In this document: in pieces, positions 376-63,475 of the stretch
Position numbering within the stretch: position 1 is the first letter of the stretch
How the letters are laid out: each line of letters opens with the position of its first letter
DNA from: a virus
Lineage: Duplodnaviria > Caudoviricetes
Reading direction: 5' to 3' (one strand)
Virus record (IMG/VR): IMGVR_UViG_3300001598_000034
Location: 64,001 to 128,000 of that record
Length of the DNA stretch: 64,000 nt
Position numbers and translations under genes: made by a program
The notes under the pieces: model-generated
Seen by the model: only the letters and a program-made list of their open reading frames with translations
Told to the model about the DNA's origin: nothing
The model's database searches: none

Positions 376-399
376 TATAAGAAAGAATACAGGTATAAT

Positions 400-1176: not shown

Positions 1177-1185
1177 GGAGCATAT

Positions 1186-1680: not shown

Positions 1681-1739
1681 GACCTCAAGAGACACCTCTG
1701 TTGAACTATCTATTAATAGCAAGGAATAAATATATACTA

Positions 1740-6840: not shown

Positions 6841-7062
6841 TTATCTTCCTGTGCAACCACAGTTATGCCTTTCTGCTACAGTTACAGAAAAAGACGTATT
6901 TTTATCCAAATGATCTAACAAGTCTTTATTCAAGTATTTAAGAATAGCTAATGTCTTAGCTTCTTCTAAGTTATCTGCTTCAACATTAATAAGTGTGTGT
7001 GATTCTTCGTTAATCATTATGTCAAATTTTTCCATATTATTTTTAAGCCTTTCTATCATCAA
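6841..7062 (-). CDS. hypothetical protein
   Basis: Short ORF in the operon; start may be the internal MEKFDI. Confidence 0.6.
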   Translation of the reverse strand: MMIERLKNNMEKFDIMINEESHTLINVEADNLEEAKTLAILKYLNKDLLDHLDKNTSFSVTVAERHNCGCTGR

Positions 7063-7067
7063 TAATA

Positions 7068-7361
7068 CTATCTGTCACCATATTGAAAATGTGGTATTAT
7101 ATTATCTTTATTTTTATATACTCCTAATTTGTATGCTAAACGTAAACAAATCCTCATAAAATAAGGTAAGTTATACCATGCCCTATCACATGGTATAACT
7201 TTTTCTACAGGAACCCATATCAGACTTCCATCTTTATCTTTGTATTCTACAGGAACTTCCGTAAAATAACCACCCAATTTACCCCTCACCATACCAACTT
7301 TATAATAAGGTTTAGTTTCTACAAAAGTACCTTGACGAAATTCATAACTATATCCTTGCAT
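7068..7361 (-). CDS. hypothetical protein
   Basis: 97 aa, operon packing. Confidence 0.6.
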   Translation of the reverse strand: MQGYSYEFRQGTFVETKPYYKVGMVRGKLGGYFTEVPVEYKDKDGSLIWVPVEKVIPCDRAWYNLPYFMRICLRLAYKLGVYKNKDNIIPHFQYGDR

Positions 7362-37454: not shown

Positions 37455-40400
37455 ATGGCCACTGGAATATCAGATTTTGAAAATCGTTTAAAAACGACTA
37501 CAAGAGACTCTAATTTACTTTTTGAAAATGAACTTGGATCCACAAATACACAGCTAACTCAAACTTTAACTGATACGATGAGAACGTTCAAAGATCAGAT
37601 GTCTTTTAATTTACAATCGTTGAACTTGACACTGAGTACTTTGTCGTCCTCTATGAATAATTTAGGAAGCAAAATCAGTGGTCTATCTCCCAATATAGCT
37701 GGACGTTATATTGAGTCAAACGTTAATCCTGGAACACTCTTAGGACCATTAAGTAGAGAATATGTTAATGCCCAGGGCAGTATATTTGGCGATATTTCTC
37801 CTTTTTTGGGAAATTCTGCATTTATTCATAGACCTTATAATGTAAACCCACTTGAATACTATACTGGGGCGCAAATGCAGAGAGATCTATATTCCCCAAA
37901 ATTTCTTAGTAATCTTGCTGCAAAAGCTCTTGGAGCAATAACACCAGGAAACACTATTGCTACCATTGGACTATCAGGATTATGGACTGGTACACATAAT
38001 TATATGAATACTGGAGATATGATTAGACGTATGTCTGGTAGATTTACCAGTTCACCATTTTCTTTAAATGATTCCTTAGGAGTTGCAAAAGAACTTCAAA
38101 AGCTTTCTTATGATGAGATAATGCGTAGCACATCAATAGAGAGTCGTCTTGGTTCTTCTGGGTACAACGATATTGCTGGTTTAGGACTGCAACTTGATTT
38201 ATTTAGAGGTAAAACTCCAGAACAATTATTAGGGCAGATAAAAGAAGCAGGCAAGGTAGTAAAGTTACTAACAGGAGTACTTGCTGCCAAAGATGTAAAG
38301 GATGCAATGGATGCTCTTGGACAATTAAAAAACATGGGTGTCAATCTAACGCGTCCTGGAGGGCAAGACTTTGCTAGGGAAATAAGTACTAAGTCATTTG
38401 GTTATGGTTTTATTAATAGCATGTCTAGCAACCAAATGTTAAATACTGGCTTACAGATTGCACAAGCTGGCTATGGAACTAATGGAATCCCAGCTGCGAT
38501 AGGTTTAATGCCTGGTATGCAGAATTTAGCCCTTATAAATGAAATGAGAAAAAGAGGGTTGGTATCTGACACTACTATCTCTGCTAGTGGTGGAGTTAAT
38601 ACTATGGCTGCCGGAATGCTCGGGGCTATAGGTGGTTTTTATACTTCTCCCGCTGGATTTGCTATGCTTGCTGCTGGAATGCAGGATGGAAAATTAAACC
38701 CAAATCTAACAAACGGTTTACTGGGTGGAAGCAATGGCCTAACTAATACTATTGGTGCTGGATTACGTAATCTGTTTACTGGTCCTGGAATGTTTGTTAA
38801 TTACGCTCGTGCTAGAGTTGACATGCCAAATATGCTAGCCGAAGCTGGACTAGAAAATCCATATGGACTAACTGATACATTTAAGTTGTGGAATATGAAC
38901 ACAATGCGCTATATGCCTCATTTTAGAAATTCATCTATGTATGATAAAATGTGGTTATTGTCAGACTTTTTGATGCGAAATCAAGGTATGACTTCTGGCG
39001 CTGCTAAAGCAACTGCTATGGATTGGTTGGATCCAACAATACGTCGCGATGTTGAATACTTGTCTAATATGGGTATTCTACGCGGAGAAGCTGATAAAGC
39101 AGCAGTATATGGTTCTCTTGGTGCAGAACTAAATAGACTAACTATAGAACCTGTAGAACGTTTAGCAAATAGAGCTACACAAGGTTTTGTTGATTTTGGA
39201 CAAACATTAACGGACTTTGCAAAACGGAGAGAAACTTATCGTAACCCAGATGAAATGTTACAAACTGGGTACAATCTTCTATATAGTAATGTTGACAAAA
39301 ATGGAAAGAAAACACCCGGGGTTCTGAATTATAATCCAGATAAAAAACTTAATAAACTCCTTTCGGCTAATACTATAAATAGATTTAACTCTTCGCTGTT
39401 TCCTGAATTAGAAGCTCAAGATATTAGAGCTATTGACATGTATACTGACCCAACAAGTATTGGTGGAGGCATAAAAAGGGCTGCTTATGGTGGCCTAAAT
39501 TGGTTAGCAAAACTGGGGTCGTTAGGTATCGCACAATATACAAACGAATCAGAAAGAGCTGTGATGAGATATGGAATGACCTTTTCAAAAGCTTATGATG
39601 GTATGTTGCAAATAATAGATAACCAATCTGGATGGAATCTTACGGAACTAAATGCTTACTATAGTGCCGCCTCTAATGGTAAAGCAAAAAAACTAACTTT
39701 AGATAAAGTAAGAGAACTAGGAAATGAATATCGTAATAACCCTTTTGCTTATGGATTAGCGCTAGGAAAAGAAGCAGGACTAGAAGGAGTAGGGGACTAT
39801 ACTATAGACTGGGGAGAAATTGCTTCAGACAATGATATTGATAATGAAGTAACTTCTTATATGAACCAGAATCCTGTTGGCGGGGAAAATCTTGAAAGAT
39901 ACATAAGTGGAATATTATCTGTTATTAGGAATGGAGAGGGGCTATATAATCTAAATACTAAACAAAAAATATTAAAAGCAATAGCAACAAATCCTCGTTT
40001 CAATACTTCTAGAAGATCCAAATCCGAAATGGAAAAATTAGATCCAGTATTACGAATGGCCGCCACACAGAAAGGATATGGAGTAGTTGCGGGTGGAGCA
40101 ACTAATATTAATGGTACAGCTGACTGGCAAGTAAAAGACCTCATACGTAAGGGAAATGGGGATATAAGTGCTTTATTTAGTGATAAAGGGCATGACTTTT
40201 GGGAAAGATCTAGACGTGCTGGCTTGACAGACGAACTTGTAAAAGTTGTTAAACTAGTAACAGACTATAATGCTGAAGCAAAAAAATCTGGAAAAAAACT
40301 AATAACAACTACCGATATATCTAAGGAGACTGCTTCTGGTGATAGTGATTATTTTAAACTTTTAAACTCTAATAATTACGATTCAAAAAAAATATTGGGT

Positions 40401-41237
40401 ATTACTTCTGATTTTAATAAAGTATTTAATAAACTAGGAAAATACGATAAGTTTCTTACTAAGTGGTCTGAACAAAGTGATGAAGAAGCTTTGCGCGGAA
40501 TACAAAGTGTCCTTGCCTCTCAAACAAATGGTGCATATACCCTTGACGATTTTCGGCAAACACTTTCTTTGCTTAAGGGAAATGAAAAGATATATAAAGA
40601 TATGCCTTCTCTTCTAACAGCTGGGTTATCTTTAGATATTTTAACACAGGATAATATCGATAATTATAAAACTAGTCTTGCGGAGAAGGATTTTAGTTCT
40701 TGGCAAAAGTATAGAGAAAAGGCCAGGATATTAACGGATAAAATTAATAAAGGCAGACCCTCTGGCCAGAAATTTACCACTGATTTATTGCTAAATCCTG
40801 CTAAGAGAGCTCGCTGGGAAGAAGAAAACGGTAAATTATCTACTGAGCAAGTAACCGATATAAAGAATCTAACCACTGAGATGTTAAATACTGGTAATTC
40901 TATTGTTAAACAAAAACTTGAAGAAGCAAATACAAAACAGCTACAAGAGACTGTTACAGGTAGTTTTCTAAAAGATGCTGAGAAAAATCCTGTAGCTAAA
41001 GCGATGAAACTTGTTCAAGGCGAATATTGTTTGAGAACAACTTCTGTAAAAGATGAAACTGAAGTCACTCCTGGAGATGGACTTAATGCTCTTTCTGAAG
41101 TTAGAAGTGGAATAGACAAAGCAATGGAAAAAGACAACAATAAGTTAGACTTCGGTCTTACACTTAAAGATTATATGGAAAGACACTTTACGCAGGTAAA
41201 TACTAAGCTTACTTATACTAGACAAATAAAAGGATAA
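37455..41237 (+). CDS. putative tape measure protein
   Basis: 1260 aa, helical, Gly/Ala/Met-rich; between chaperone and baseplate genes. Confidence 0.65.
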   Translation: MATGISDFENRLKTTTRDSNLLFENELGSTNTQLTQTLTDTMRTFKDQMSFNLQSLNLTLSTLSSSMNNLGSKISGLSPNIAGRYIESNVNPGTLLGPLSREYVNAQGSIFGDISPFLGNSAFIHRPYNVNPLEYYTGAQMQRDLYSPKFLSNLAAKALGAITPGNTIATIGLSGLWTGTHNYMNTGDMIRRMSGRFTSSPFSLNDSLGVAKELQKLSYDEIMRSTSIESRLGSSGYNDIAGLGLQLDLFRGKTPEQLLGQIKEAGKVVKLLTGVLAAKDVKDAMDALGQLKNMGVNLTRPGGQDFAREISTKSFGYGFINSMSSNQMLNTGLQIAQAGYGTNGIPAAIGLMPGMQNLALINEMRKRGLVSDTTISASGGVNTMAAGMLGAIGGFYTSPAGFAMLAAGMQDGKLNPNLTNGLLGGSNGLTNTIGAGLRNLFTGPGMFVNYARARVDMPNMLAEAGLENPYGLTDTFKLWNMNTMRYMPHFRNSSMYDKMWLLSDFLMRNQGMTSGAAKATAMDWLDPTIRRDVEYLSNMGILRGEADKAAVYGSLGAELNRLTIEPVERLANRATQGFVDFGQTLTDFAKRRETYRNPDEMLQTGYNLLYSNVDKNGKKTPGVLNYNPDKKLNKLLSANTINRFNSSLFPELEAQDIRAIDMYTDPTSIGGGIKRAAYGGLNWLAKLGSLGIAQYTNESERAVMRYGMTFSKAYDGMLQIIDNQSGWNLTELNAYYSAASNGKAKKLTLDKVRELGNEYRNNPFAYGLALGKEAGLEGVGDYTIDWGEIASDNDIDNEVTSYMNQNPVGGENLERYISGILSVIRNGEGLYNLNTKQKILKAIATNPRFNTSRRSKSEMEKLDPVLRMAATQKGYGVVAGGATNINGTADWQVKDLIRKGNGDISALFSDKGHDFWERSRRAGLTDELVKVVKLVTDYNAEAKKSGKKLITTTDISKETASGDSDYFKLLNSNNYDSKKILGITSDFNKVFNKLGKYDKFLTKWSEQSDEEALRGIQSVLASQTNGAYTLDDFRQTLSLLKGNEKIYKDMPSLLTAGLSLDILTQDNIDNYKTSLAEKDFSSWQKYREKARILTDKINKGRPSGQKFTTDLLLNPAKRARWEEENGKLSTEQVTDIKNLTTEMLNTGNSIVKQKLEEANTKQLQETVTGSFLKDAEKNPVAKAMKLVQGEYCLRTTSVKDETEVTPGDGLNALSEVRSGIDKAMEKDNNKLDFGLTLKDYMERHFTQVNTKLTYTRQIKG

Positions 41238-44886: not shown

Positions 44887-46704
44887 ATGCTATTAATATT
44901 TCCTAAAAAAATAGAAGCTGCTTCTGATTGTAATTATAAATTAGCAGAATACATAAAAAAATATATAGAAGAACGTGGCGGACAAGCTGAAATATCTCGT
45001 AAGTCAAGTGACTCACCAGAGATAGAACCTTTAGTTTGCAAAAATACAGTAAACCCAGATATTTTTTTAGGACTATATACTGGTGAATATGTTGGTGGAA
45101 CATATATTATAGTCTGCAATGCCTATTCCGCTTTGGCTGGTACTTATAATGCTTTGCTGTGTAAAGAGTTTGGTGATCCTTTAGAAAGCGAAACTTCTGG
45201 TTTAGATATTGTGGGCGAATTAAAACTAAGCAATACTTGTGATATTACATTACACTTGCCTGCACTTGTTAAAGATTACACTGATGATCAGTTAGAATCA
45301 CTAGCGAAAAAACTTGTTGAAGAAAGCTGCTGGTATCCTATTTATACTAAAACAAAAGATACCAGTGTTCCTAATATGTCTGATCCTTACTTATATAGGT
45401 TTTCTTCTGATACTTCTTGGCATGAAGAAACATATGAGTTTAAGCCTGCTCCAGAACCAGAAATAGAGACAGATGCCGTTATCAATGATGATCCAGAACC
45501 AGAGGTTAAATCTTCAGGTAAAATTGGATATGATGATAAAGATGAAAAAGGCCATCCCATACACTATTTAGAAATAGATTCTAAAGAAACTGGAGATTAT
45601 CCAGTAGACCAAGCTATAGTTCCACCAGAAACCCCAATACAAAAGCACTATGTATGGTCTATACCACTATCCAACGTGCCTTCAACCGCTAAGAAAATTA
45701 TTTTTCAAGCTAAGGGAATGTCCGGTGGTGAGAAAATATATGTTAAAATTGGAAAAACTCAAGCAACATATGAAAGTGATATACCAACAACCTATCAAGA
45801 GTGGACTAGTGATGTAGCTACAACAGCCTATACACAATTCGATTTACATGACATTACTCTTAAAGCTGATAATTTAGAATCCCTTGAACTTGGTGTAATA
45901 GGTGAAGGTAAAGTTCGTTTTACTGGTATTTGGATTACTGATTCTACAACTAATTATGAGAAGCTCCCTTACCCATATCGAAAAGAGTACTCTGAAGAAG
46001 AAATAGAGAAGCAAGAAGAAGTACCAAAAAAACCTGGTATTACTTTAACAAAAGCTGCTACTTTAGATGATAGAGCAAAAGATCAAATTTCTCCACCAGA
46101 ACCTGTCCCAGAACAAGATACTTCTGAGGATCCTGCCGGTGGTGCTTCTACTGCCACTGCAGAGGGCTTTGCTACTGCAGTAAGTGGTGTAATGGAAAGT
46201 TTAACTGGAGCTGGGAAGATACTGGATACTCAAAGTTTAATGAAACTAGACACTAATGCTCTTACAGATAAAATAACAAAAGAACTAGACTTCGGTAAAA
46301 AACTAAATATGTCTAAAGCTAAAGAAAAATTAGAGGGGATCAAAAATGCTGCTTTAGCTCAAGCAGAAGAGTTGAAAAAGGTTTCCGAAGATAAAACAAA
46401 TGCACTGAATTCTATGATGACTAAAGACGCACTATCTGGTATATTGCCAATAGCTATACCTACAATACCAACTACTGAATCACTGAGCCAGATAGTGGCA
46501 TCTAAAGCACTCCTAGAAAATAAAAAGGATGCTTTAGATGCTGGAATAACTAATTTGAAAAAAGGTTTACCAAGTATTAATGTTCCGGATTTATCTAATT
46601 TGCAGAGTAAAATACAAGGAATACAAGCAGTTCAAACAGTAGCTAAAAATGCAGTAGATACTGCATCTGCGTCTGCTTCTACTAAAATTATAGAATTATT
46701 CTAG
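44887..46704 (+). CDS. virion-associated protein with degenerate amidase_3-like N-terminal domain
   Basis: DCNYKLAEYIKKYIEERGGQAEISRK...NPDIFLGL resembles Amidase_3 without the His ligands; beta-sandwich middle; helical C-terminus. Confidence 0.45.
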   Translation: MLLIFPKKIEAASDCNYKLAEYIKKYIEERGGQAEISRKSSDSPEIEPLVCKNTVNPDIFLGLYTGEYVGGTYIIVCNAYSALAGTYNALLCKEFGDPLESETSGLDIVGELKLSNTCDITLHLPALVKDYTDDQLESLAKKLVEESCWYPIYTKTKDTSVPNMSDPYLYRFSSDTSWHEETYEFKPAPEPEIETDAVINDDPEPEVKSSGKIGYDDKDEKGHPIHYLEIDSKETGDYPVDQAIVPPETPIQKHYVWSIPLSNVPSTAKKIIFQAKGMSGGEKIYVKIGKTQATYESDIPTTYQEWTSDVATTAYTQFDLHDITLKADNLESLELGVIGEGKVRFTGIWITDSTTNYEKLPYPYRKEYSEEEIEKQEEVPKKPGITLTKAATLDDRAKDQISPPEPVPEQDTSEDPAGGASTATAEGFATAVSGVMESLTGAGKILDTQSLMKLDTNALTDKITKELDFGKKLNMSKAKEKLEGIKNAALAQAEELKKVSEDKTNALNSMMTKDALSGILPIAIPTIPTTESLSQIVASKALLENKKDALDAGITNLKKGLPSINVPDLSNLQSKIQGIQAVQTVAKNAVDTASASASTKIIELF

Positions 46705-46714
46705 GAGATAAATT

Positions 46715-47155
46715 ATGATTTCCGGATTACAACTTTTAAAAAATTTTGATAATAAATATGCTACTAAAAAGGAAATTAACTACACTTTAGATAGCTATTC
46801 GGTAACAAAGGGACCTCTAAGATCTATGCAAAAATTTGTAGTTATTTTGCAAACTGAGCGTGGGTCGGACCCTATACGTCCATGGTTTGGTACTAAGATT
46901 GCAAATATTAACTTAATGAACATTGTGAATAAGACAGAACTGGAATTATTTTTACGTTCAGAATGTTCTTCTGCTATTTCTCAGTTTTTTAAACTACAAG
47001 AAGAAGAAAGTACTCAAAGTGCACAAACTGGTTATGATATAATAGAAGGATTAGAATTGCTGAAAGTAAAGATAGACGAGAGCAATACTATTTCGTTGGT
47101 ATTTAAATTTAAACCATTAAAATATGAATCAATATTATTTTCAATAAATGTTTAA
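46715..47155 (+). CDS. baseplate wedge protein, gp25/gpW-like
   Basis: QKFVVILQTERGSDPIRPWFGT. Confidence 0.75.
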   Translation: MISGLQLLKNFDNKYATKKEINYTLDSYSVTKGPLRSMQKFVVILQTERGSDPIRPWFGTKIANINLMNIVNKTELELFLRSECSSAISQFFKLQEEESTQSAQTGYDIIEGLELLKVKIDESNTISLVFKFKPLKYESILFSINV

Positions 47156-47167
47156 CAAGGGGTATAA

Positions 47168-48970
47168 ATGGCTAATACATCACCAATTTCTGCTTTTGAT
47201 GCAGAAGAAAATATAGAGGTAAAAGCATTAGAAATAATGCGCGAATATTACCCAAGTATAGACTGTGGTCCAGGTACTCCTGTCTATGAAATGGTAATAC
47301 GCCCTATTGCATATTTATGGTCAAGACAGTCCATGGGTTTAGAAGAACTCATAAAGTCTGTAAGTTTTAATGACTACGTAAACATGGCCACAGAAGATTT
47401 AGATAGACTTATGAACCGCTATTTTCTTACTAGACGTGTTGGTAAAAATACTACAGGTATAGTACGTTGTATAACAAAAGGAAATGTAGATATCTATATA
47501 ATGTCTGGTGAAATATGGGAGATAGAAGACGGAAGAACTTACGAGGTACAAACTACCATTGATATAAAAAAAGATGAATGGGATGACATGAAGGATAATG
47601 GCGACCCATTATATTGGTATACGGAGTTAACAAATGTAGTAACAGCTAAGGGAAGACTTGCTACTATTGCTGAATTATATGCTCTTGTAGGTATGAAAAT
47701 TGGCGATAAGTATATTGTTACTAGTACCGATTCTGTTTGGGAATATAAAGATGTTTCTAACGAATATATTTGGGTTGAAGATAAAAGCATAACTCATCCA
47801 ATACTATATAAAGAAGTTCCTGATGATAAAAGGGTATATTATATTGATACTTTAGTAGTATCTACAGGTACTGGATCTATTTATAATGCTGCTCAATATG
47901 ATACTTTAATACCAACAGGTACTTCTTCTGCTGATATTGTATCTGCATATTTTTTGCATTCAACAAATGATGGTGGCGCATCTGAAAGTAATTATGATTT
48001 TTATACTAGAGCTAAAAATGAATTAGCCTTTAGGGGTATGTGTTCATACAAATCTACATCATCTCTATTATTAGAAAATTTTGATACTATAAAAGAGGTT
48101 GTATCTATAGGATTAAAAGATACGGAAATGATAAGAGACCTTGTACAAATTTCTACTGGATCTTCTACTACTCCGATAACAATTCATTCTGGGGGTCGTT
48201 GTGATATCTATATTAAACCGACTCAGTATTATGCCGAAAATGGCTATAATGCACCGCTAGGATTTCCTTTAATGTATGAAGGTATTAATTTAAAAGATGA
48301 TATACAAGATGCATTAATGACAAAATGGAATACTGAAGTAGCGCCACGTTTAACCTATCAAATAGGATTAAGAGGATCTCTTAGAGAATCTGTTGGAGAT
48401 TATTTAAATAGTAAAACAAATATGACTAATTTAAAGTCTGATTTAGATGACATAACTGAATTTGTTGAAAATGGAGAAAACACACCATTACATACAGATA
48501 GTCTTGTTAAGCAGATGTGGCCAATAATTATTAAGGTAAATCTTGAAATAGAATCAGACAACCCTGAAGAAGACATTTTATTGGCAAAAATGACCGTAAA
48601 TGAATATATAAAATCTCTTAAGTCTTCTGAGGCTCCTCAAATTGCTGAATTAGCGCACGTATTAAGATCTGCAGGAATTAAATCAGTACATGTTCCTTCT
48701 ACATATAAGTACCCTCCAAAAACTTCTGTGGATTTAGAGCGTCCAATATTAAAAGCTTATTATATAAGAGATTCTTTCGATATGGAATGGTTTGGGTTAA
48801 ATGGAACCACTTCTTCAACAAGTACTAAACCTACATTATTAAAGCCTGTGGAGACAGACAGTCTAAAGTTTGAAATAAGAGAAGACTATGCGAATCAGTC
48901 CCAAATAACTTTACGTACATGTACTTGGTATACTAATATGGATTTAATAAATATTGAGGTGAGTGGATAA
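47168..48970 (+). CDS. baseplate J/gp6-like protein
   Basis: LDRLMNRYFLTRRVGKNTTG, STGTGSIYN, GGASESNYDFYTR, GGRCDIY. Confidence 0.8.
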   Translation: MANTSPISAFDAEENIEVKALEIMREYYPSIDCGPGTPVYEMVIRPIAYLWSRQSMGLEELIKSVSFNDYVNMATEDLDRLMNRYFLTRRVGKNTTGIVRCITKGNVDIYIMSGEIWEIEDGRTYEVQTTIDIKKDEWDDMKDNGDPLYWYTELTNVVTAKGRLATIAELYALVGMKIGDKYIVTSTDSVWEYKDVSNEYIWVEDKSITHPILYKEVPDDKRVYYIDTLVVSTGTGSIYNAAQYDTLIPTGTSSADIVSAYFLHSTNDGGASESNYDFYTRAKNELAFRGMCSYKSTSSLLLENFDTIKEVVSIGLKDTEMIRDLVQISTGSSTTPITIHSGGRCDIYIKPTQYYAENGYNAPLGFPLMYEGINLKDDIQDALMTKWNTEVAPRLTYQIGLRGSLRESVGDYLNSKTNMTNLKSDLDDITEFVENGENTPLHTDSLVKQMWPIIIKVNLEIESDNPEEDILLAKMTVNEYIKSLKSSEAPQIAELAHVLRSAGIKSVHVPSTYKYPPKTSVDLERPILKAYYIRDSFDMEWFGLNGTTSSTSTKPTLLKPVETDSLKFEIREDYANQSQITLRTCTWYTNMDLINIEVSG

Positions 48971-51721: not shown

Positions 51722-53299
51722 TTATTTAAAGTTTTCTGGAACTAATTTTGGTAAACAATCACTAAGACCAGATTGGTCCATCTTAGTTAAAAACACCACT
51801 AATTGATCGTAGCATCTTTTATAGGATTCGAAAATAATACTTAATAGTTTTACCTCTTTTGCTTGATCTACTGTGTGCAGATGACTCATTATTCCCCAGA
51901 AATTGTTGATATCCAAAGGATTCTCCAGTAGGTTTCTATAATTAGGATTATTGCTTTCTTCTTTCTTGGCGAAGATATTTAGCAGATTAAGTAATTTTTC
52001 TTTAAATTTTTTTTCTCTATAAGAAAACTGGTGTGAGAAGGGATCATCGCCTGTATTTCCTTTGCGTTCGGATGTAACTACTGCCCCTAATACTCTTTGA
52101 AATAGTACTTGGCGTCCTAATAGCATAGCGATTAAACGTAAGTTCTCATAGGATTTTCTTGGGTAATTAATTTTTCCATTTACAATATTCATGCCTAATA
52201 GATGCTTAGTGCTTTGAATATAATAGAATTTCGGTTTAATGGCTAGATCTGCTATACCATTCAAGTTATTGGCTAGTATTTCTAAATTAGCTTCTACTGT
52301 ATCTCTATCTAATTTATCCATGTTGGCACTTACAACTTTATAGCTTCCGGATTCTGTTATATTGAAAGAGGAATCTCCAAAGAGTTCATAACATTCTTTT
52401 AATACTAGCGTCAAGTCCTTCTTAGAAAATTTATTTTTCTTTTTGAACTCAATACTTGTTAAGATGCTCTTCGAAGAAGTCCTCATAATCTTGAGCTTTT
52501 CCCAATTAATTGTAAATGGAAGAATTTCTTTCGTTAATTCTTTAACAAACTTTCTGGACGTGCTATAATCTATACTCCCAGAAAAGGCTAAATCATCAGC
52601 ATACCGACTGTAAGCTAGATTATATTTACTTGCCAGCTCTGCTATTTTTTCGTCCATCTCGTAATTAAGCGCTACTACTAAACAGGGGGATGTTGGTGCT
52701 CCTTGTGGTAAACAACTATTGCGAGTAATTAAACACATGATACCATTCAGTGTATAGTCGTCTAACCCTACATTATAAGAGGCTTTAAACTTTTCTTTTA
52801 ACTTAGTTTTGACATAATTATACTTATGATTATCAAAGAATTTATTAAGATCAACATGGATTAATGTTTCACCATCTTTAACGGCCGAGGCTGCATCATA
52901 AATATTTTTTCCACTGACAAAGCCATTATTAGCTGGATGAATTGGAAATTTTGAAAATACGCTTATCAATTTTTTCTGCAAACTTTTCAATTCGTCTACT
53001 GGAGCATTAATTTCTCTAAGTTTACCCGGAAAACTTCTCGGAACGATCTTATGTGAGCGTTTGTCAATATAAAATGTTTTATATAATTTGTTAGGATATA
53101 TTGTTTTAATTTCTGACAGCTCTTGTGGTGTTAACCCAAGAAATACACTTAATGTAACAAAGTCAATAAATGGTGCATTTTCTGTGCATTCTGGAACACA
53201 CTGACAAGAATTAAATGAACATCCATTTTCTTCTATAAATACTTGCTTATTGTATATGCGATCTTTAGCCGAATTTTTTATTGATTCAAATACTTTCAT
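51722..53299 (-). CDS. retron-like reverse transcriptase
   Basis: KLREINAP..ELKSLQK, HPANNGFVSGKNI, VDLNKFFD, LPQGAPTSP, YSRYADDLAFSG, FTINWEK. Confidence 0.92.
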   Translation of the reverse strand: MKVFESIKNSAKDRIYNKQVFIEENGCSFNSCQCVPECTENAPFIDFVTLSVFLGLTPQELSEIKTIYPNKLYKTFYIDKRSHKIVPRSFPGKLREINAPVDELKSLQKKLISVFSKFPIHPANNGFVSGKNIYDAASAVKDGETLIHVDLNKFFDNHKYNYVKTKLKEKFKASYNVGLDDYTLNGIMCLITRNSCLPQGAPTSPCLVVALNYEMDEKIAELASKYNLAYSRYADDLAFSGSIDYSTSRKFVKELTKEILPFTINWEKLKIMRTSSKSILTSIEFKKKNKFSKKDLTLVLKECYELFGDSSFNITESGSYKVVSANMDKLDRDTVEANLEILANNLNGIADLAIKPKFYYIQSTKHLLGMNIVNGKINYPRKSYENLRLIAMLLGRQVLFQRVLGAVVTSERKGNTGDDPFSHQFSYREKKFKEKLLNLLNIFAKKEESNNPNYRNLLENPLDINNFWGIMSHLHTVDQAKEVKLLSIIFESYKRCYDQLVVFLTKMDQSGLSDCLPKLVPENFK

Positions 53300-54275: not shown

Positions 54276-55379
54276 CTAGTGTTCTTCCTCTATATCAAAA
54301 GATCCTTGAGGGGGTGAACTTTCTACTTCTTTCTTTACTGCATCAGGTGGTTGAAATTCTTCTAGCTGATGTTCTGCGCGATGCGGATGTGGTAAAAAGA
54401 AACGTGCACCTAAACGTAGATATACTAATGTGTGAGCAAAGTCATCTGGAACATTGGGGTCACGAATAATTTGAAATGACCTTGTTTTTTCATTATATTC
54501 ACAAGATAAGGTAAGTAAGTCTGGAGCAAACATGTCTTTAATTCGTTCATATTTTGGTAATATAATTCTATGTGCTTTAATGTCTAATATCATACCGGCC
54601 ATAGCCCTAGTACGGTCTGTTATCCATGACTTTGAATCTACATTGAATTTCATTCCAGCTTGTACTCTAGCTTTATATTCTATTTCATATAGAGGTTTAT
54701 TTGGAATATTACGTCTAAGTACTGAATTTGCTAGACTACCACCGCCTCTATCGGCTACGATTAACGAGACGTTTGCTTTGTTTATAATTGAACAAATATC
54801 ATCCATTTGTGTAAGGGGGTCTTGGTCAACTGGATATTTCTTAGAAAAGATAACTCTGACTGCACCATCACTATCTAAGCCACCAATCGTTAATACTGTA
54901 TGTGTGTTTCCACCGAGTACACCCCAATCGCAACTTGCTATAAGCTGCCTTACATGCCATTCTGACTTTCTATCTAGAGTAAAATCAGACATATTATTAT
55001 CGCAGCAACTTTCAATATCTGCTTCGATAAGTAACTTAGCACCATTATCATAACTAAAGCCTAAACACTCGTTGTAGAGCTTTGCTTCGGAGTACATTGG
55101 GTTATCTAATTTTTCATAAAGACGTTCCCAAGGTATTCCTGTAGCTGGAACACCTGCAACCATTGCTTGAGAGATGTGGTACCCAACAAACTTTCTATCT
55201 GGATGCATAGCTACGTATTCTCCAGTATTGACATCTATATGTCCTCCACACTTCTTGCATATTAAACCAATTGGGGAAAGATTCTCTATTTGAATCGGTA
55301 CATTCCATGTATTACAAGACGGACATTTAATTGCCCAATAATGTTGTGTTGATGTATCCCAGAGCTTTTGAATTGTATT
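54276..55379 (-). CDS. terL: terminase large subunit, exon 3 (zinc ribbon + nuclease domain)
   Basis: Frame open 57 codons upstream of the ORF-track start: NTIQKLWD...CPSC...CKKC; NECLG, SCDWG, ADRGGG, PDDFAH. Confidence 0.85.
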   Translation of the reverse strand, partial: NTIQKLWDTSTQHYWAIKCPSCNTWNVPIQIENLSPIGLICKKCGGHIDVNTGEYVAMHPDRKFVGYHISQAMVAGVPATGIPWERLYEKLDNPMYSEAKLYNECLGFSYDNGAKLLIEADIESCCDNNMSDFTLDRKSEWHVRQLIASCDWGVLGGNTHTVLTIGGLDSDGAVRVIFSKKYPVDQDPLTQMDDICSIINKANVSLIVADRGGGSLANSVLRRNIPNKPLYEIEYKARVQAGMKFNVDSKSWITDRTRAMAGMILDIKAHRIILPKYERIKDMFAPDLLTLSCEYNEKTRSFQIIRDPNVPDDFAHTLVYLRLGARFFLPHPHRAEHQLEEFQPPDAVKKEVESSPPQGSFDIEEEH

Positions 55380-55639
<260 letters not shown>

Positions 55640-56044
55640 ATCGAATGTTTTTGGTGTACCAGTGTAGTACATTCTTTTAGGATTTTTACGGGACGTACAC
55701 TCCTCAATGACTGGAAGTGAATCATAGTGTATATCTTGCACCTCATCAATATACACACTATTAGCTGTCAATCCACGGATACCGTCTGCGTTTAAATAGC
55801 AAGAACGCAGATAAATAGCTGATTGATTGAGCAGTTCTCTAAGAAATACCTGCTGTTTACAAGAAGAATCAATATAATATTTTTTAATTAAAGGTGAGTT
55901 AAGTAACATTGGTCCAAGTTTATCAGTTGCAAAAGCAGTTATCTGATCTTGCCTTGGAGCTACATATAAACTTCTCCAATAAGGATGGGAAGTTAATTCT
56001 GTAACTGCTAGACTACTTACTGTGGTGCTTTTTCCTACTTGTCT
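55640..56044 (-). CDS. terL: terminase large subunit, exon 2 (ATPase)
   Basis: RQVGKST (Walker A), IRGLTANSVYIDEVQD (Walker B), YTGTPK. Confidence 0.9.
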
Positions 56045-56298
56045 CATTTGTGTTTAATTGGTTCGTTAATCCAATCTGGTTAATACCACTGTATATTTCT
56101 ATACAGATCTGACTATATCTTCTTCCCTCATGGGAAGCTCCGCGCTTCGATTGCACTTGCAACCTACTCCTTTACAGGATAGTCGATGAACCCGATTTAA
56201 CTTGGCTGCTGATTTCCCTACGCTTAGCTTTAAGGGTTTCCCAGCAATTCACGGAGTTATACTCTGTAATGTTACCACTACAGACGGCAGTTTTATTT
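56045..56298 (-). mobile_element. ORF-less group I intron 1 in terL (254 nt)
   Basis: Exon ends GGT followed by AAATAAAACTGCCG; AAGATATAGTC core; terminal G; join gives ILMTG|RQVGKST. Confidence 0.9.
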
Positions 56299-56439
56299 AC
56301 CTGTCATAAGTATCATTTTCTCAACGTTTGTATCTATAATTGTTCGCATATATGGAAGCAAGTATAATGGTTTCCCATCCATATATATTAATTTAGATGC
56401 AAAGTCTGATGGTCTTGTTTCTATGTTATATAGTGCTAT
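56299..56439 (-). CDS. terL: terminase large subunit, exon 1 (not in ORF track; possible ATA start)
   Basis: 47 codons: (I/M)ALYNIETRPSDFASKLIYMDGKPLYLLPYMRTIIDTNVEKMILMTG; spliced product about 549 aa. Confidence 0.75.
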
Positions 56440-56444
56440 TTAAA

Positions 56445-57179
56445 TCACCTTCTTTTTCTTTTTTTTATCATATCTTTTAAATTATCTATGTTTATATATT
56501 TAGTAATAGACTTATATACACTTTGAAAATCCTCTGATTTATTTTTTAAACCATACATTTTATAGAATAATATATAAAGCGCCCCTTTGAATAGGGATTC
56601 TGGATTGTCGTGCAAATATCCTATTCCTCTATTACATGTATCACACAATAAGCCTCTTAATATACCAGAATAATGATCATGATCAGCGTGTAGTACATCT
56701 CGTTTTTCTTTATTATAAACTTTTTTACCACATAAAAGGCAACAGTTATCTTGTGTATTTTGAACTCTCATGTACTCCTCGTGTGACCAACCTGTTCGTT
56801 GCTTTCTTGCTAATGCTGTAAAATAAGGTCGACTTTCTTCTTTGTGCATTAACCTATATTGTCTATTATATTCTTTGTATTTTTTATCTTTTTGTGGATC
56901 TGATTTTCTTTCTATATATTGTCTTTTAACTGTACATTTTTTACATGTATGGGAGTAACAATTATCTCTTTTAAAAAAATAGTAATCATGAAATGTATAT
57001 ACATTCTTACATTCTTTACATCTTCTAGTCCCAATTACTTCTGGTATAATCAGTGGGTCCCAAAAGTCATCTAAAAATAACCTCTCCTCATGTGCCCATC
57101 CACCTTCTATAATGTTTAAATCAAAGTCTGTCAACGTTAAAGCCTTTCTAAAAAAAATGAGATAGCAACTAGTCTTCAC
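56445..57179 (-). CDS. free-standing endonuclease VII-family (HNH) nuclease, probable homing endonuclease
   Basis: CKEC...CKKC; QDNCCLLC...HADHDHYSGILRGLLCDTCNRGIG. Confidence 0.85.
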   Translation of the reverse strand: MKTSCYLIFFRKALTLTDFDLNIIEGGWAHEERLFLDDFWDPLIIPEVIGTRRCKECKNVYTFHDYYFFKRDNCYSHTCKKCTVKRQYIERKSDPQKDKKYKEYNRQYRLMHKEESRPYFTALARKQRTGWSHEEYMRVQNTQDNCCLLCGKKVYNKEKRDVLHADHDHYSGILRGLLCDTCNRGIGYLHDNPESLFKGALYILFYKMYGLKNKSEDFQSVYKSITKYINIDNLKDMIKKRKRR

Positions 57180-58129: not shown

Positions 58130-58460
58130 CTTAATATATTTTAAAATCGGAATTGCAACCGTATCTATGTTTATGCCCTCCCGATGCAGGGAGGTGTTTG
58201 GAACGTTAGCCGGAACTGATGTTCCGTTTCTAGCCCACACCACGTAGAGGTGTTCCTTGTGGGCCTTACGAACTCTTCAGGAAGTCGAGAGAAAGATTGG
58301 TGTGCCATTTTTGGTACCTTCTAGCATCGCCACGTAGAGGCTCTTTCATGATGCCATTTACGGGATTTCGACCGGGTCTATATTTTAGTGTTAAAATGAA
58401 GGCGATCTTACCGCCCAGTAGAAAAATCAGCATAAATTAATACGCTAATCTTTCTACACC
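58130..58460 (-). ncRNA. candidate structured leader/ncRNA with tandem covarying hairpin motif
   Basis: GC-enriched, many hairpins, starts after GGTATAAGTAT (58462-58471); two copies of a stem-bulge-stem with UCUACGU loop. Confidence 0.45.
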
Positions 58461-58797: not shown

Positions 58798-58862
58798 GGA
58801 TATAGTTTTCACTATATCCCTTTTTTATCTCTTTTTTTTAGCAATAAAAAAGACGTAGATTT

Positions 58863-58961
58863 TTAATCTACGTCTCTAATCTCTTTAACTTCTATTTTAC
58901 CTGTTTCGTTATCTTTAACCACTACAACTGTATCACCTGATACTGAATCTCCATCATAATC
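58863..58961 (-). CDS. RNA polymerase gene exon 3: catalytic DYDGD followed by split-intein N-fragment
   Basis: Reads DYDGD-SVSGDTVVVVKDNETGKIEVKEIRDVD-stop; terminator hairpin overlaps the stop (58846-58876). Confidence 0.85.
   Translation of the reverse strand, partial: DYDGDSVSGDTVVVVKDNETGKIEVKEIRDVD
58866..58946 (-). mobile_element. putative atypical split intein N-fragment (27 aa, Ser1)
   Basis: SVSGDTVVVV...GKIEVKEIRD matches the intein block A pattern and replaces the expected beta' continuation. Confidence 0.7.
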
Positions 58962-59193
58962 CAATTTTGTTACCTTAGAAGCTTTTTATCTTCTAATTCT
59001 ATACGTCACCATATAGTTCAGCGTACATTTTGAAGCTTGCGCAACTCGGACACTCTTGGGGGAATTATATTCTATTGCTAGGTTCATCCCCTACGCGTTA
59101 CGGAGTCTAGAGTTTTTTGAGATCTAGATTTCCTCGGTATTGTCTACTAGAGATTTTTACCGATTTTGCCCGATTTTATGCCGGCAACTTTTT
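58962..59193 (-). mobile_element. ORF-less group I intron B in the RNAP gene (232 nt), distinct subtype
   Basis: Exon end GCCGGT pairs with IGS GCCGGC; P7 GCGTA/TACGC (AAATGTACGCTG); terminal G; join gives GFAG|DYDGD. Confidence 0.85.
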
Positions 59194-59284
59194 ACCGGCA
59201 AAACCCGTTAATGTCAACGGATTTGTCATGATGCTTTTTCCTTTTACTGGTATTGGTAAAAAGGCTTGATGATTCAGTTTCCAA
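59194..59284 (-). CDS. RNA polymerase gene exon 2 (91 nt)
   Basis: Encodes WKLNHQAFLPIPVKGKSIMTNPLTLTGFAG, colinear with beta' [30 protein letters not shown]. Confidence 0.88.
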
Positions 59285-59543
59285 CATTTTGTTATAGATA
59301 ATTCGTTACTCTATCTAGAGCTATTGCTCCTGTATATTTCTATACAGATCAGACTATATCTTCGAGCGACATAGGTCGTTCGTTCCGCACTTCGATTGCA
59401 CTTGCAATCTACTCTCTTTCGAGATAGTCGTTGAACCCGATTTAACTTGGCTGCTGATTGTCTTCGGCTTTGCCCGGTCAGAGTTTCCAGCAATTCACGG
59501 AATAGTACTCTATACTGTTGCCAATATAGACGCCTAAGAATTA
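59285..59543 (-). mobile_element. ORF-less group I intron A in the RNAP gene (259 nt)
   Basis: Exon end CGCT pairs with IGS GGCG; AAGATATAGTC core; terminal G at 59285; core nearly identical to terL intron 2. Confidence 0.9.
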
Positions 59544-62500
59544 AGCGAAGGTGCACGGTTTATAATTACAGGATGATCTTTTGTTAAATCATATAGAATT
59601 TTTTTAGCAGTTTCGGACTTGTTTTGCAACTCCTCTTTTGCTTGCATAATACTTAGTCCACGTTTACGCAACTCTGCGATTATAAATCCTTCGTATGTTT
59701 TCCACAACATATCTTCAGGAATTCCTACATGATCAACATCTAACCCTGGATCTGGAAGAATCGTACCACGTCCAGATATTTGTTGTTGTCTTTTTAGAAT
59801 TTTACGTTGGAAGAAACTATTTTTACTTGATCCAGATACTTGATAGTTACTACCTACTAACTGTGGCATAAAGCCAGTTACACCACGTTTTTGGTTTTGT
59901 TTGTTTACTGGCGCCATTAGACCAACTACTGCATGCGCTGATTGACGTAAATCTTTAAGAAGTGCTCCCTTTTCGCTATCAGGGAAGTTCTTCATTTCGT
60001 TTAGTTTTTCGTTCACATTCAGCATATCTTTATATAGATAATTATAATCAGATACCATTGGTAAGCCACCTGATTGACTATCATATATAGGTCTAAACTG
60101 CGGAGGGATAATTGGGAACTTAGTTAATACGTATTCATCTGGATGCATTCCAGAGCGTTTTAAGGCAGTAAGGTATTTTAATTCTTTAAGAAGCTTATTA
60201 CGATCGCTACCTTTAGCTACTTTTAACCCTGCACTAATTTCACCAATACGCTTATCGGCATTAATTGCTGCCAATTCTTTTTTAACATCTTTACCATTCA
60301 TTCCTGTAATATCTTTATGTAGTAATACCTTTACTACATCTTCAAATATAGGATTAACGATTGGGGCAGCTAAATCAATATGACTCCAGTACTGACCTTC
60401 CATGCCACCAGTAATTGCTGGATCAAAGATACCACCTTTTTCGGGAATATCTTTGCCCATGTGATTTTCCAGTATTGCTCCCTTACGAATTGCTCCACTA
60501 GACATTTGCATAATGCTTTTGTCTGTCAAAGGAGATATACTTGTAGCATTCTCGTCTTCTTTTACTTGCATACCAGCAGCAGTAATCAAAGACTTAAATT
60601 TCTTAAAAGCAAAGGGTTCTTTAGCTGGGAGTTGTGGTACTCCGGCCTCTAGTCTATTCCAGAAGTCATCATTTTTATCAGACTTATAAGTAGCCATTTC
60701 CGCTAAGTTAGCACGAGCATTATGGCCTAACAACGCATATACATCTAACAGGCCAATGCCTTTAGAACCTTCCTCGCCGCCTTTTAATGGCTGCTTGTTA
60801 GCATCATAACTACCACGATATAAACCAGAGAAGTTTCCTTCTGTCTGTTTATGTAGCTTTAAGAAATAAGGTGTTCCAGTAAACACTTTACCAAGGTTCT
60901 CACCTGTCTTACCATCAATAAGTTCCTCTTCGATTTTAATACCGTCCTTTTTAAGGTCGTTTAAAACTTTTACTGAGGAGTCACTCTTATCGAAGTTGTC
61001 GACGGTTACTTTATGCCCTAATGCTAAAGCCCGCTTACCTGACATGGCTTCATATAGCTGACCAGGATTTACACGGCTAGGAACAGATGCTGGATTTAAC
61101 ATAATGTCCATGACTGTTCCGTCTTTAGTGCGGGGCATTTCATTATCTGGAAGAATTAATCCAATCGTACATTTATTACCATGAAGACCAGTTAACTTGT
61201 CTCCTCGTTTTGCTTGATCTTCTGTAGTGGCTACAATGCGGATTGTTTTAGTTCCTTTATTAACGTTTGTTACAAGTCCGGGAGCGTCATGATCCCATAC
61301 TTCAGCCGCATCCCTATAGGGATTTACTAGGCTGCCTCTTAGTTTCTTTAACATTGCGTCTGAGGACGTGAGCGTCTTACGACGCAAGCCTGTAACAAGT
61401 ACGTCACCTTTAATAACGGTTTGTCCTTCTTTAACTACACCTTGTTCATCTAACTTTTTGATGTTCTCAGGTGTAATTTTTGTCGGGAACCATTTTATAA
61501 AAGATCCTTTATCAATATATGTATCAGGAGTTATTTCAAACTCTTTCATGTACATATGTTGACTTGTGAATTTTTTAGAAGCAGATTCTGATATTACTAC
61601 CGCGTCATCATGCGTCCATCCTTTATAGGGCAAATACGCAACGTTGACATTTGTACCAATGGCTAATTCACCATTCTTAGTAAAGTTACTATCTGCTAAT
61701 ACTTGTCCTTTTCGTACCTTATCGCCAACCTTAACCAGAGGGTACATTGTAATAAATGTCTTCTGGTTAAGTGGGAAGTTATGATACATTTCTACTTTAG
61801 TATGATCTACCTTAATATAATTATCAGTTACTTCGGTGATAGTTCCTGCGTGTGGCGCAAGAGGTACAAAAAATTTCTTCCCATATTTTTCGTGTAATGT
61901 TTCAAACTCCCCGCTTTGGTCTTTTATCTGTACCAGAGGGGCTTCTCTATGAATCAATGGAACTGCTTGTGTTACCATACGACCAGCCATGGTTACACGG
62001 TTTCCTTGGTCGTTATGAAGATATGGTACCAGATTAGTAGTTACCGTGAACATATCGGAAGATGCAGGTAACCAGTAATCAACCTTATCTCGAGGCATCT
62101 GTTTCGTTTCGCCATTAATAATAACTTTTACAATGGGTAGTTTATCCTGTCCAGGAAAACCTATTACTTTATTGTACGTATCCATTGGGCGCAACTCTAC
62201 TTTGTTGCCTTTTCTGTCCAAAAACTCACTATAAATACTGCGATTCTTGATTGTAGTACCGAGTGTACTACGTACGTCCACACCTACTCTGACTGACTCG
62301 GCTGTACGTACAGGATCAAGGAATCCCAAGTGCGATGGATGAAGATTACGTGCTCCCATTGGAATGCCACGATCTGACTGAATACCTCCCTCGCCCATAG
62401 GGGTTATTTTATGATTTGTTTCTAGAATTTCGATAGGATTAATTTCTGTTTGTGGGGCAGAAAGACTGGATGTCGTGAAGAAGTTTTCCACAAGTTTACT

Positions 62501-63475
62501 GAATAAGTTAGGGATAATAATGCTTTTCAAGTCAGCTCCAGAATCAATACGATTTTGGAGTTTATAGAGCAACCCTGTTTCCTTGAACTTCTTTTCAATA
62601 CGAAGCATCAAATGGTCTTCTACGCCTAGGACTTCTTTAAATAATAAGCTATCTAAATCGTCCTCTTCTTCTTTATTAGCGTACACATTCATAACTTTCT
62701 TGGAAGCCTGGATTAAAGTATTTGCATCTACTTTATCTGTGGGTATTCCAAGTGTTACTTGCGTAGTGTCTTTATTAAGTATATTAGAAGCGAAGTAATC
62801 TTTTAAATCCTGTGCTGTATTGCCAGTACGTTTTGTTGGATATACTACTTTCTCTAATATGGTCTCTAAATCTGTATCACCATGAGAATTCATAACATTA
62901 ATGTTAAAAATTTCTTCTCCCCAAGCTGCCTTAAGGGCTTGATCTCCAGCTCCTAAAAGTTTTAACAAGGGGTATAATGGTGTTTTCTTAGCAGATGTAG
63001 ATAATGCTGATTTATCGAATACGATGGTAAATAAACCATCAGAATCCATGTGTATTTTAAACCCTAAGCCTTTACCTAAGTTAAAAGTTGCAAATGTTTC
63101 GTTGCTTCCTTCTGGCTTACGTACATAAACTCCAGGTTTAAGACGTGTTTGATTAAAGACTGAATAGTCTTTTCCAAGGACTATGAAAGTCCCGCGTTCA
63201 GTTAAAATAGGGAGATCTAATATTTTTATTTTAGCAGTTTCATTTTTTCCATTGTTTCGTGTTAATTTTAAATTAGCGTAAACTGGGGTACCAAGTGACT
63301 TTCCAGCTAAAATATGATCTTTTTGATTAGAAATGGTCGCCTTGACCTTATCGGGTATTTCTACACTGATAATATCAATGCGGCCAGTCTTTGCTTCGAT
63401 AGGAAATACTTTTTTAATGCCTTCTTCTACTTTACGAAGAATATCTCTCCATTTATCTTCTGTTTGTAAGTACAT
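59544..63475 (-). CDS. multisubunit RNA polymerase beta subunit fused to beta' N-terminal half, exon 1
   Basis: Beta motifs RNLHPSHLG, PYLHNDQGNR..MVTQAVP, GDKLTGLHGNK, NPASVPSRVN, YFLKLHK; then beta' motifs GIFDPAITG, IIPPQFRP, SGRGTI, NRAPSL. Confidence 0.93.

Follow-up and report, generated by a model that had tools for sequence, protein, structure and literature searches.

How a phage obtains a complete multisubunit RNA polymerase (RNAP) when the gene for it stops just short of the catalytic loop is the question raised by a locus in IMG/VR record IMGVR_UViG_3300001598_000034. The stretch analyzed, referred to as the window, has 64,000 nucleotides (nt) and covers bases 64001-128000 of one viral contig, which has 146,590 bp and a CheckV completeness of about 92%; the GC content around the RNAP locus is 32-40%. 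The RNAP gene (gene 1) appears on the minus strand as an open reading frame (ORF) of 1313 aa (59534..63475), which ends in VIINRAPSLNS (...DHPVIINRAPSLNS) and a stop codon, and the ORF list and the translation agree with the initial annotation on this abrupt end. Pfam assigns Rpb2_3 and Rpb2_6 (4.5e-57), then Rpb1_1 and Rpb1_2 to it. Because Rpb2 domains are followed by Rpb1 domains, the ORF is a beta subunit fused to the N-terminal part of beta' (beta'-N), stopping at the NRAPSL motif. It is also the only match to PF00562 in the whole 146.6-kb genome. We propose, with a probability of roughly 85%, that the catalytic loop of this RNAP is assembled by removal of two group I introns from the RNA, followed by ligation of both protein halves in trans by a split intein.

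The fused gene has three exons on the minus strand. Exon 1 (59544..63475) encodes 1310 residues and ends with bases 1 and 2 of the Leu codon closing NRAPSL. Exon 2 is a micro-exon of 91 nt, or 30 codons (59284..59194), which by direct reading completes the Leu codon and encodes (L)WKLNHQAFLPIPVKGKSIMTNPLTLTGFAG. Exon 3 (58961..58863), also read directly, encodes DYDGD, SVSGDTVVVVKDNETGKIEVKEIRDVD, and a TAA stop. DYDGD (58947..58961) aligns with the invariant D.DGD of the family, and is the equivalent of the Mg-binding catalytic loop NADFDGD; it forms the last five residues of the N-extein. Directly after it comes a 27-residue peptide without Cys (58866..58946, starting SVSGDTVVVV), which is referred to as IntN, the N-terminal intein fragment. 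The protein bearing IntN stops with the TAA at 58863..58865, and the last codons overlap an intrinsic terminator with a 13-bp stem and a T run (58877..58849), one of three terminator-like sites that the scan found in the region versus 0.3 expected. Direct reading and this hairpin thus bear out the earlier view that the frame after the last Asp runs through a 27-mer into a stop and a terminator.

The exon joins agree with homologues in length and register. A search with the C-terminal 414 residues of beta/beta'-N returned 233 homologues, and 32 of them (P0124-P0157) are intron-less, with one continuous ORF through DFDGD and a stop 24-32 residues later. Their consensus is NRAPTLHK(Y/F)N.MA.KP....GKSI.IPPL.IKGF(A/N)ADFDGD-SV.GDT.V.V....G.I.LK.IKDV-stop. 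The length and register of exon 2 equal those of the NRAPTLHK...IKGFAA stretch, and the joined reading NRAPSL-WKLNHQAF...GFAG-DYDGD is collinear with the homologues. The spacing NRAPSL-(35 residues)-DYDGD is identical, and D1, D3, G4, and D5 of the loop are invariant. The exon-joined product has 1311 + 30 + 32 = 1373 aa, and the intron-less homologues have 1365-1376 aa. Spacing and register hence uphold the claim that removing positions 59285-59543 and 58962-59193 restores the catalytic loop, and with 32 homologues reading through in one ORF, the joins and the tail are far beyond chance. The 27-mer is in frame and terminal in these homologues, so it is not removed by a further RNA splice, a possibility that the initial annotation had raised.

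Many beta-beta'N relatives are longer, having 1690-2130 aa (P0124-P0137, P0146, P0151, and P0153). Besides the terminal IntN, a further contiguous intein (PF14890, LAGLIDADG_3 being present or absent) is found elsewhere in their beta/beta'N, and some RNAPs of the clade would then need two protein-splicing events. The homologues come from protein-cluster searches; a related-locus search in IMG/VR with a single protein gave no relative. Neither megablast of the locus nor tblastn of the C-terminal intein fragment matched any of 50,697 GenBank phage records, so the clade is absent from that collection of deposited phages.

The C-terminal half of beta' is missing from the window, as had been noted, and its sole copy in the genome is found outside it. 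PF04998 (Rpb1_5) has one match in the genome (39830-40696, plus strand), which lies inside an open frame of 919 codons. This gene 2 (38276-40984, plus strand) starts with an ATG at 38276, preceded by its own strong ribosome-binding site AGGAAGGAG, and encodes a 902-aa protein (P0002). A sigma-70 promoter scan upstream of the gene gave four sites versus 2.8 expected, which is at background. Residues 1-252 (38276-39031) form the C-terminal intein fragment, IntC, as judged from Pfam and NCBIfam matches, and are followed by 650 beta' residues. As the genome has no second beta or beta'C gene, the RNAP encoded by the phage itself depends on this locus.

IntC is matched by Pfam Intein_splicing PF14890 with 47.5-51.9 bits versus a cut-off of 35.8, by NCBIfam TIGR01445 over residues 9-69 (profile positions 16-83 of 83, 26.6 versus 24.5), and by TIGR01443 over residues 232-251 (24.6 versus a cut-off of 15.6). 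As positions 1-15 of TIGR01445 are unmatched, block A is missing from IntC, and the 27-mer of gene 1 supplies exactly that part. Block B of IntC is T62-N-D-H65. Block F contains T232-Y-D234, aligned with the block F Asp of the DnaB and CDC21 inteins. The intein ends with N246-G-I-I-V-F-D252 and the extein starts with T253-VMVHTPVSAEARQEALDKMLPSKN, giving the junction VFD-TVMVHTPV. In unsplit relatives of ~2000 aa the loop continues as DFDGD-TM.VHVP..E.A..EA..M.PS.NL (DFDGDTMxVHVP), so a DYDGD-TVMVHTPV junction is seamless. The initial annotation had predicted a separate gene with an IntC, then Ser, Thr, or Cys and the C-terminal half of beta', and such a gene is present: the C half does carry an IntC, with block B, blocks F and G, a Thr, and the beta' residues in this order. 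Of the intein motifs it had named (TxxH...HN), the first occurs as TNDH, and the terminal HN is replaced by Phe-Asp. Its description of IntN as free of cysteine holds; IntC has two cysteines, C97 and C130, neither of which is conserved.

Both intein halves are conserved across a family of phages. In an alignment of 33 IntN sequences (24-32 aa), Ser1, G4, and I23 do not vary and V2, D5, T6, and V8 hardly do, with the pattern S-V-x-G-D-T-x-V. Gene 2 has 43 homologous metagenomic clusters (P0003-P0045) with 43-59% identity, 860-905 aa where complete, and the same architecture. The 41 aligned IntC N-termini start just before (V/I)LTYNP. Block B is intact wherever it is covered, as TDDH in nearly all members and TSDH or TNDH in the closest relatives, and all 44 IntC homologues end with ...ILV(Y/F)D-TM..HVP. 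Among the residues invariant in the 41-sequence alignment are H42, T62, D64, H65, W217, R228, T232, Y233, D234, D252, and T253. In contrast to these residues, variability within IntC is highest in the ~130 residues between blocks B and F. PF14890 matches 41 of the 41 members scanned, and an endonuclease family of Pfam matches none of them. One cluster has 272 member sequences on contigs of up to 171 kb, and is annotated just as 'hypothetical protein' or 'RNA polymerase subunit beta''. The two-gene layout recurs on a 104-kb relative contig, in which the IntC gene (82-2769, plus strand) and the beta-beta'N gene (about 80.8-84.8 kb, reverse strand) lie ~78 kb apart on opposite strands.

We then modeled the two halves. 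The AlphaFold2 (AF2) model of IntC, computed from alignment A3, has a pLDDT of 83.4 and a pTM of 0.82. Searches with Foldseek and VIA-align found that its best structural matches are endonuclease-bearing inteins, namely 2cw7 (Z 18.8, root mean square deviation 3.7, 244 residues aligned) and 7qss (Z 17.6, 243 residues aligned); mini-inteins align over 100-138 residues with Z of about 10-13. The first aligned residue of the model (8-18) meets residue ~22-31 of most solved inteins, which means that IntC is without the first ~25 residues of the Hint domain. Residues 126-182 form an alpha-beta-beta-alpha-beta-beta run, and in the model this insert looks like a relic of an endonuclease region.

The complex was predicted from IntC (270 aa, 41-row alignment) and the exon 3 peptide (32 aa, 33-row alignment). 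The ipSAE values are 0.88, 0.89, and 0.88, and that of the best control is 0.00; in calibration the ipSAE mark was attained by 58 of 80 solved complexes, compared with 2 of 110 mismatched pairs. At least 85% of contacts agree between runs, with a partner pLDDT of at least 81. The modeled IntN docks against the IntC strands at 18-22, 59-62, and 245-247; its contacts cover residues 18-22, 59-66 (the strand of block B), 243-247, and 250-253 (block G with the C-terminal junction), and it thereby occupies the canonical place of the block A strand. The invariant H42 and the nearly invariant H45, a Tyr in this phage, touch IntN as well; for Ser1 inteins, Pasch et al. (PMC10189870) describe a further conserved histidine ('NX') preceding block B. 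The prediction suggests that the fragments may associate into one Hint fold, and as many inteins have been solved, it demonstrates likeness rather than proving binding.

From these features we propose that a single multisubunit RNAP would be made from two genes, which lie about 82 kb from each other and on opposite strands. Gene 1 would contain two self-splicing group I introns within its last 500 nt, flanking the 30-codon micro-exon, and its spliced mRNA would give the 1373-aa protein ending with DYDGD and the 27-residue IntN. Gene 2 would provide the 252-residue IntC, a Hint domain lacking the first strand and bearing an endonuclease-derived insert, ahead of 650 beta' residues. IntN would first complete the Hint fold of IntC. 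Ser1 would then undergo an N-O acyl shift, Thr+1 would attack the resulting ester, and the terminal Asp would cyclize. The exteins would finally be joined as ...GFAGDYDGD-TVMVHTPV..., the junction peptide being ...GFAGDYDGDTVMVHTPVSAEAR (...GFAGDYDGD-TVMVHTPVSAEAR). The ligated beta-beta' product would have 1346 + 650 = 1996 aa and be collinear with unsplit relatives of 1987-2091 aa.

The Hint profile matches, Ser1, the block B Thr and His, the block F Asp, and Thr+1 point to a class 1 intein with oxyester chemistry, all of these splicing residues being present and invariant. Two halves on separate genes, a break after block A, and collinear exteins likewise make it an atypically split intein. 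The occurrence of RNA splicing and protein ligation is something we infer from gene structure, intron identity, the two intein halves, their conservation throughout the family, and the modeled docking. Several observations weigh against splicing. The canonical His-Asn of block G is absent, as F251-D252 ends the intein, and Asp for Asn and Phe/Tyr for the penultimate His are found in 44 homologues and 4 contiguous relatives; non-canonical block G residues slow the third step in some inteins. Asp or Gln can cyclize instead of Asn and some inteins splice without the penultimate His (PMC4031507), hence the unusual block G lowers the case for class 1 membership but does not exclude it. The invariant Thr+1 (Thr253) is not independent evidence for ligation, because intein-free relatives also keep this Thr. 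The split as such does not demand ligation either, since a sister group is intein-free and has its beta' split 86 residues further on. IntN alone matches no family in Pfam and NCBIfam, being too short a fragment for profile scoring, and its family profile, a very short query, gives only chance-level matches to PDB sequences (E 0.9 and 4), none of them to inteins. For the second intron, RF00028 gives no match in the window even at E<=1.

An alternative in keeping with part of these points is that the intein halves are a module that does not ligate, serving to bring the RNAP halves together or to self-cleave, so that the enzyme would be a non-covalent complex of two chains. Related RNAPs function split 86 residues downstream without any intein (~1450 + ~605 aa), a terminal Asp and the lack of a penultimate His depart from the canon, and Thr+1 is constrained by the extein anyway. 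The position of the break speaks against it. Here the break lies inside the catalytic loop, and an uncleaved Hint domain of 279 residues would occupy the active center. Moreover, at 43-59% identity Ser1, TxDH, the Asp of block F, and the terminal Asp stay invariant while the insert drifts, the pattern that a working splicing site should show. The relatives whose intein is contiguous share both the site and the [Y/F]D-T end, and must excise the intein to give an enzyme. A non-ligating module is therefore improbable, and trans-splicing remains our preferred reading.

Distant relatives bear on how the split intein arose. One class consists of unsplit beta-beta' fusions of about 2000 aa. A second is intein-free with beta' split about 86 residues past DYDGD into ~1450-aa and ~605-aa partners. 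The third (P0166, P0173, P0175, and P0188) has the same split as the second plus a contiguous intein of ~495 aa at exactly DxDGD-T, which contains LAGLIDADG_3 and Intein_splicing domains and ends with (Y/F)D-T. In profile-profile comparison of IntC with these contiguous inteins the C-terminal blocks alone were listed, at 97% probability, and in BLASTP the concatenated DYDGD, IntN, and IntC gave a collinear alignment that runs through the break and covers residues 1-120 of P0188 (E 7e-6). Because the contiguous relatives share the site, the (Y/F)D-T end, and the C-terminal blocks and align collinearly, the split intein most likely descends from an endonuclease-bearing intein that homed into the DxDGD-T site.

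We turn to the introns. Intron 1 (59285..59543, minus strand, 259 nt) matches RF00028 with 80.5 bits (E 7e-20, model positions 1-253), above the gathering score of 50, which substantiates the intron noted earlier and places it in group I. The match spans 59330-59553 (minus strand). P1 pairs CGCUU with AGGCG in the Rfam alignment and places the U.G pair at U59544, which sets the boundaries at 59543..59285 with the terminal G at G59285. The intron has a 33-nt insert at the P7.1/P7.2 position and no endonuclease ORF, and its excision yields NRAPSL-WKLNHQAF as in the homologues. Covariance-model match, U.G pair, terminal G, and in-frame joining thus make intron 1 a group I intron.

Intron 2 (58962..59193, minus strand, 232 nt) is group-I-like and belongs to a family to which RF00028 is blind, with no match on four homologous loci. 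By direct reading, P1 consists of GCCGGU paired with GCCGGC eight bases downstream, its U.G pair marking the 5' splice site; the last base of the intron is G58962. Relatives occur in 46 phage records, with 67-74% identity over up to 96% of the length, including Staphylococcus Sextaecvirus phages, crAss-like cr7_1 and cr131_1, and Clostridium phiCP39-O. Several of them lie exactly between two coding-sequence (CDS) pieces of the terminase large subunit, and one adjoins a capsid gene. Members of the family (loci L008-L017) have about 210-230 nt and the conserved segments GUAACGCAUAG...GAUAAAAAGC...GAUAACAAAAUG; in the Clostridium perfringens, crAss-like, and Sextaecvirus phages the flanks are annotated as separate CDS pieces in the deposited records.

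The structure of intron 2 was derived from an alignment of 11 sequences (A1) with RNAalifold, to which a long-range helix (GCRUA/UAYGC) crossing the P3-like helix was added manually. Before this addition, 27 of 36 pairs had compensatory changes. The order of helices is P1, P3 5', P4(-P5), P6, P7 5', P7.1, P3 3', P8 (variable), P7 3', P9, P9.1, and the terminal G, and P7 forms a pseudoknot with P3. In the final structure 94.6% of cells are paired and 29 of 43 pairs have changes on both sides. None of 500 shuffles was as good, and sliding the 3' partners reduced pairing to 34-46%. Of the five pairs of P7, one covaries and four are invariant. P1 with its U.G is rebuilt from different exons in at least five members (GCCGGU/GCCGGC, GACGGU/GCCGUC, CCCGU/GCGGG twice, and CAUGGU/GCCAUG). 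The P7.1 insert, which we take to be typical of subgroup IA, is at the same place as the 33-nt insert of intron 1. Since RF00028 gives no match, the assignment depends on the manual topology and on covariation, and from these we conclude that intron 2 is probably a group I intron of a family missed by Rfam's model, with self-splicing as the expected activity.

The closest relatives bear on the site of intron 2. Two of them (85% identity) are without intron 1, and their ORFs end with ...KGFAA, the position of intron 2 here. One of the two loci (L005) has a group I intron recognized by Rfam (7020-7317, 60.5 bits) in the codon position that intron 2 takes here, and downstream of it reads DFDGDSVSGDTLVLVQDISGKVKLKQIKDV and a stop (DFDGDSVSGDT...KDV), then a terminator. 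This position, together with the covariation, substantiates intron 2 as the earlier reading had it. In at least P0140 and P0148 the ORFs also end at the GFA[AG]-D[FY]DGD boundary. Two unrelated group I types at this boundary suggest repeated independent intron invasion of the catalytic-loop codons.

It could still be argued from the RF00028 result, and from a 33-codon ORF with a TTG start at 58863..58964, that intron 2 is no intron or splices only with the help of a factor, and that DYDGD-IntN is made separately from the TTG at 58964 or never. This is highly improbable given the P1 U.G, the terminal G, the P3/P7 pseudoknot, and the 29 of 43 covarying pairs. Members of the family interrupt terminase and capsid genes exactly between their halves in unrelated phages, and in the closest relative this codon is interrupted by a bona fide group I intron. 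Excision gives GFAG-DYDGD in frame, while a free catalytic loop of 32 aa would be structurally senseless.

The surroundings of gene 1 hold further mobile and self-cleaving elements. In the region 54276-57179 (minus strand) the terminase large-subunit gene is in pieces, with ORFs at 54276-55208 and 55637-56047; two Rfam group I introns that closely resemble intron 1 (55428-55649 and 56089-56309, each with 78.4 bits) separate them. An Endonuclease_7/HNH-type ORF (56445-57179, minus strand) lies just upstream of these pieces. A reverse transcriptase ORF of 525 aa (51722-53299, minus strand) has the Pfam RVT_1 domain (5.6e-14) and the YADD motif. About 600 nt downstream of the RNAP gene is a candidate hepatitis delta virus (HDV)-like ribozyme, RF02682 at 58199-58265 (minus strand), with 41 bits just below the gathering score of 44 (E 3.5e-5). 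At the equivalent place the relative with 85% identity instead gives a match to the type III hammerhead (L005:7797-7851, 45.9 bits versus 48.5). Two different candidates for small self-cleaving ribozymes at one genomic position look non-accidental. Outside the window, an ORF of 985 aa (45887-48844, plus strand; L020:67-3024) contains a second intein, which is canonical and contiguous. It starts with C-FPAGTDVLL, has the LAGLIDADG-like motifs IIGYFLAEGSF and IIGKYFDGDGTF, and ends with SIAVHN-C. As this intein starts with Cys and ends with HN-C, the same phage carries a classical Cys/Asn intein and a split Ser/Asp intein.

Four group I introns, the second intein, the HNH gene, and the reverse transcriptase in or near the window might suggest a decaying RNAP gene overrun by mobile elements, a notion that is barely credible in view of exons that are all open and in frame, intact catalytic and splicing residues, an architecture kept in more than 40 homologue clusters (among them the 272-member one on contigs of up to 171 kb), and close relatives in which no frameshift or loss of DxDGD was seen. 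A pseudogene or an assembly artefact was also considered and rejected, as many independent contigs have the same architecture.

The T4 td/nrdB, SPO1, and Twort introns are phage group I introns of the subgroup IA type. Intron 1 resembles them in its P7.1/P7.2 insert, and intron 2 in its P1 U.G, P3/P7 pseudoknot, P7.1, P9, and terminal G. As with T4 td/nrdB-type introns, introns 1 and 2 interrupt an essential gene at its most conserved codons. They differ in that the intron 2 family escapes RF00028 and that both introns are without a homing endonuclease ORF. Another difference from T4 td/nrdB-type introns is that two intron types share one codon position in phages 85% identical in the RNAP protein.

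As for the intein, its best structural matches, PI-TkoII (2cw7) and the Tli/Pho VMA inteins (7qss and 7qst), are contiguous and endonuclease-bearing, whereas the domain here is broken into two genes and has no endonuclease detectable by Pfam. Known atypically split inteins reside in terminases, UvsX-type proteins, and PolB (PMC10189870). AceL/GOS TerL, VidaL, and PolB16 OarG (15 + 168 aa; PMC10189870) share with the present intein a break after block A, a short IntN of a size suited to synthesis, a long IntC, and a phage or metagenomic source. PolB16 and VidaL also have Ser1 and a hydroxyl +1 nucleophile, that is, oxyester chemistry, and alignment of the IntC model with the solved VidaL (6vgv) gives a Z of 10.1. 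In contrast to all of these, the host here is the catalytic loop of RNAP beta' rather than a terminase, recombinase, or DNA polymerase. The end is Asp preceded by Phe/Tyr instead of His-Asn, the 252-aa IntC keeps an endonuclease-like insert of ~130 residues, the genes are ~82 kb apart on opposite strands, and no sequence similarity was detected beyond the Hint blocks.

With regard to the enzyme, metagenomic tailed phages encoding beta and beta' (Weinheimer and Aylward 2020, PMC7481178) and the jumbo phages with split RNAPs (phiKZ and AR9) likewise have a phage RNAP with recognizable Rpb2 and Rpb1 Pfam domains, and a beta' that takes more than one gene. Different from these, the present enzyme has beta and beta'-N in one fused protein, and an intein bridges its second break. 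The words intein, intron, and split do not occur in PMC7481178. Full-text literature searches for a split intein in an RNAP found no prior description, their coverage being incomplete and novelty thus unproven. What appears new is a natural, atypically split, Cys-independent, Asp-terminated intein that is conserved across a phage clade and located in the catalytic loop of RNAP.

Cys-independent atypically split inteins with a peptide-sized IntN are rare and wanted (PMC10189870, PMC11923092, and PMC12707363), and for protein engineering the family offers about 40 natural variants with an IntN of 24-32 residues. For intein biology, the contiguous endonuclease-bearing intein, the split derivative with a decayed insert, and the invariant C-terminal Asp with Tyr/Phe replacing His form a natural series, useful for understanding how inteins split and how the third step proceeds without Asn.

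No intein-free allele was seen among about 40 split homologue clusters, and the two intein halves are in distant transcription units. A tentative idea, which we regard as doubtful though worth stating, is that the split intein has become a fixed and obligatory step of maturation, acting as a natural post-translational AND gate by which the catalytic loop, and with it phage transcription, would become active only once both halves have accumulated; Asp-terminated, oxyester-only chemistry could tune its timing or make it dependent on conditions. For the biology of these phages, the Mg-binding loop of RNAP would need three self-catalyzed splicing reactions, two of RNA and one of protein in trans. 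The arrangement is conserved in a widespread clade of uncultured phages and demonstrates how far mobile elements can reach into the most conserved codons, and it leads one to ask whether trans-splicing sets the timing of transcription in these phages.

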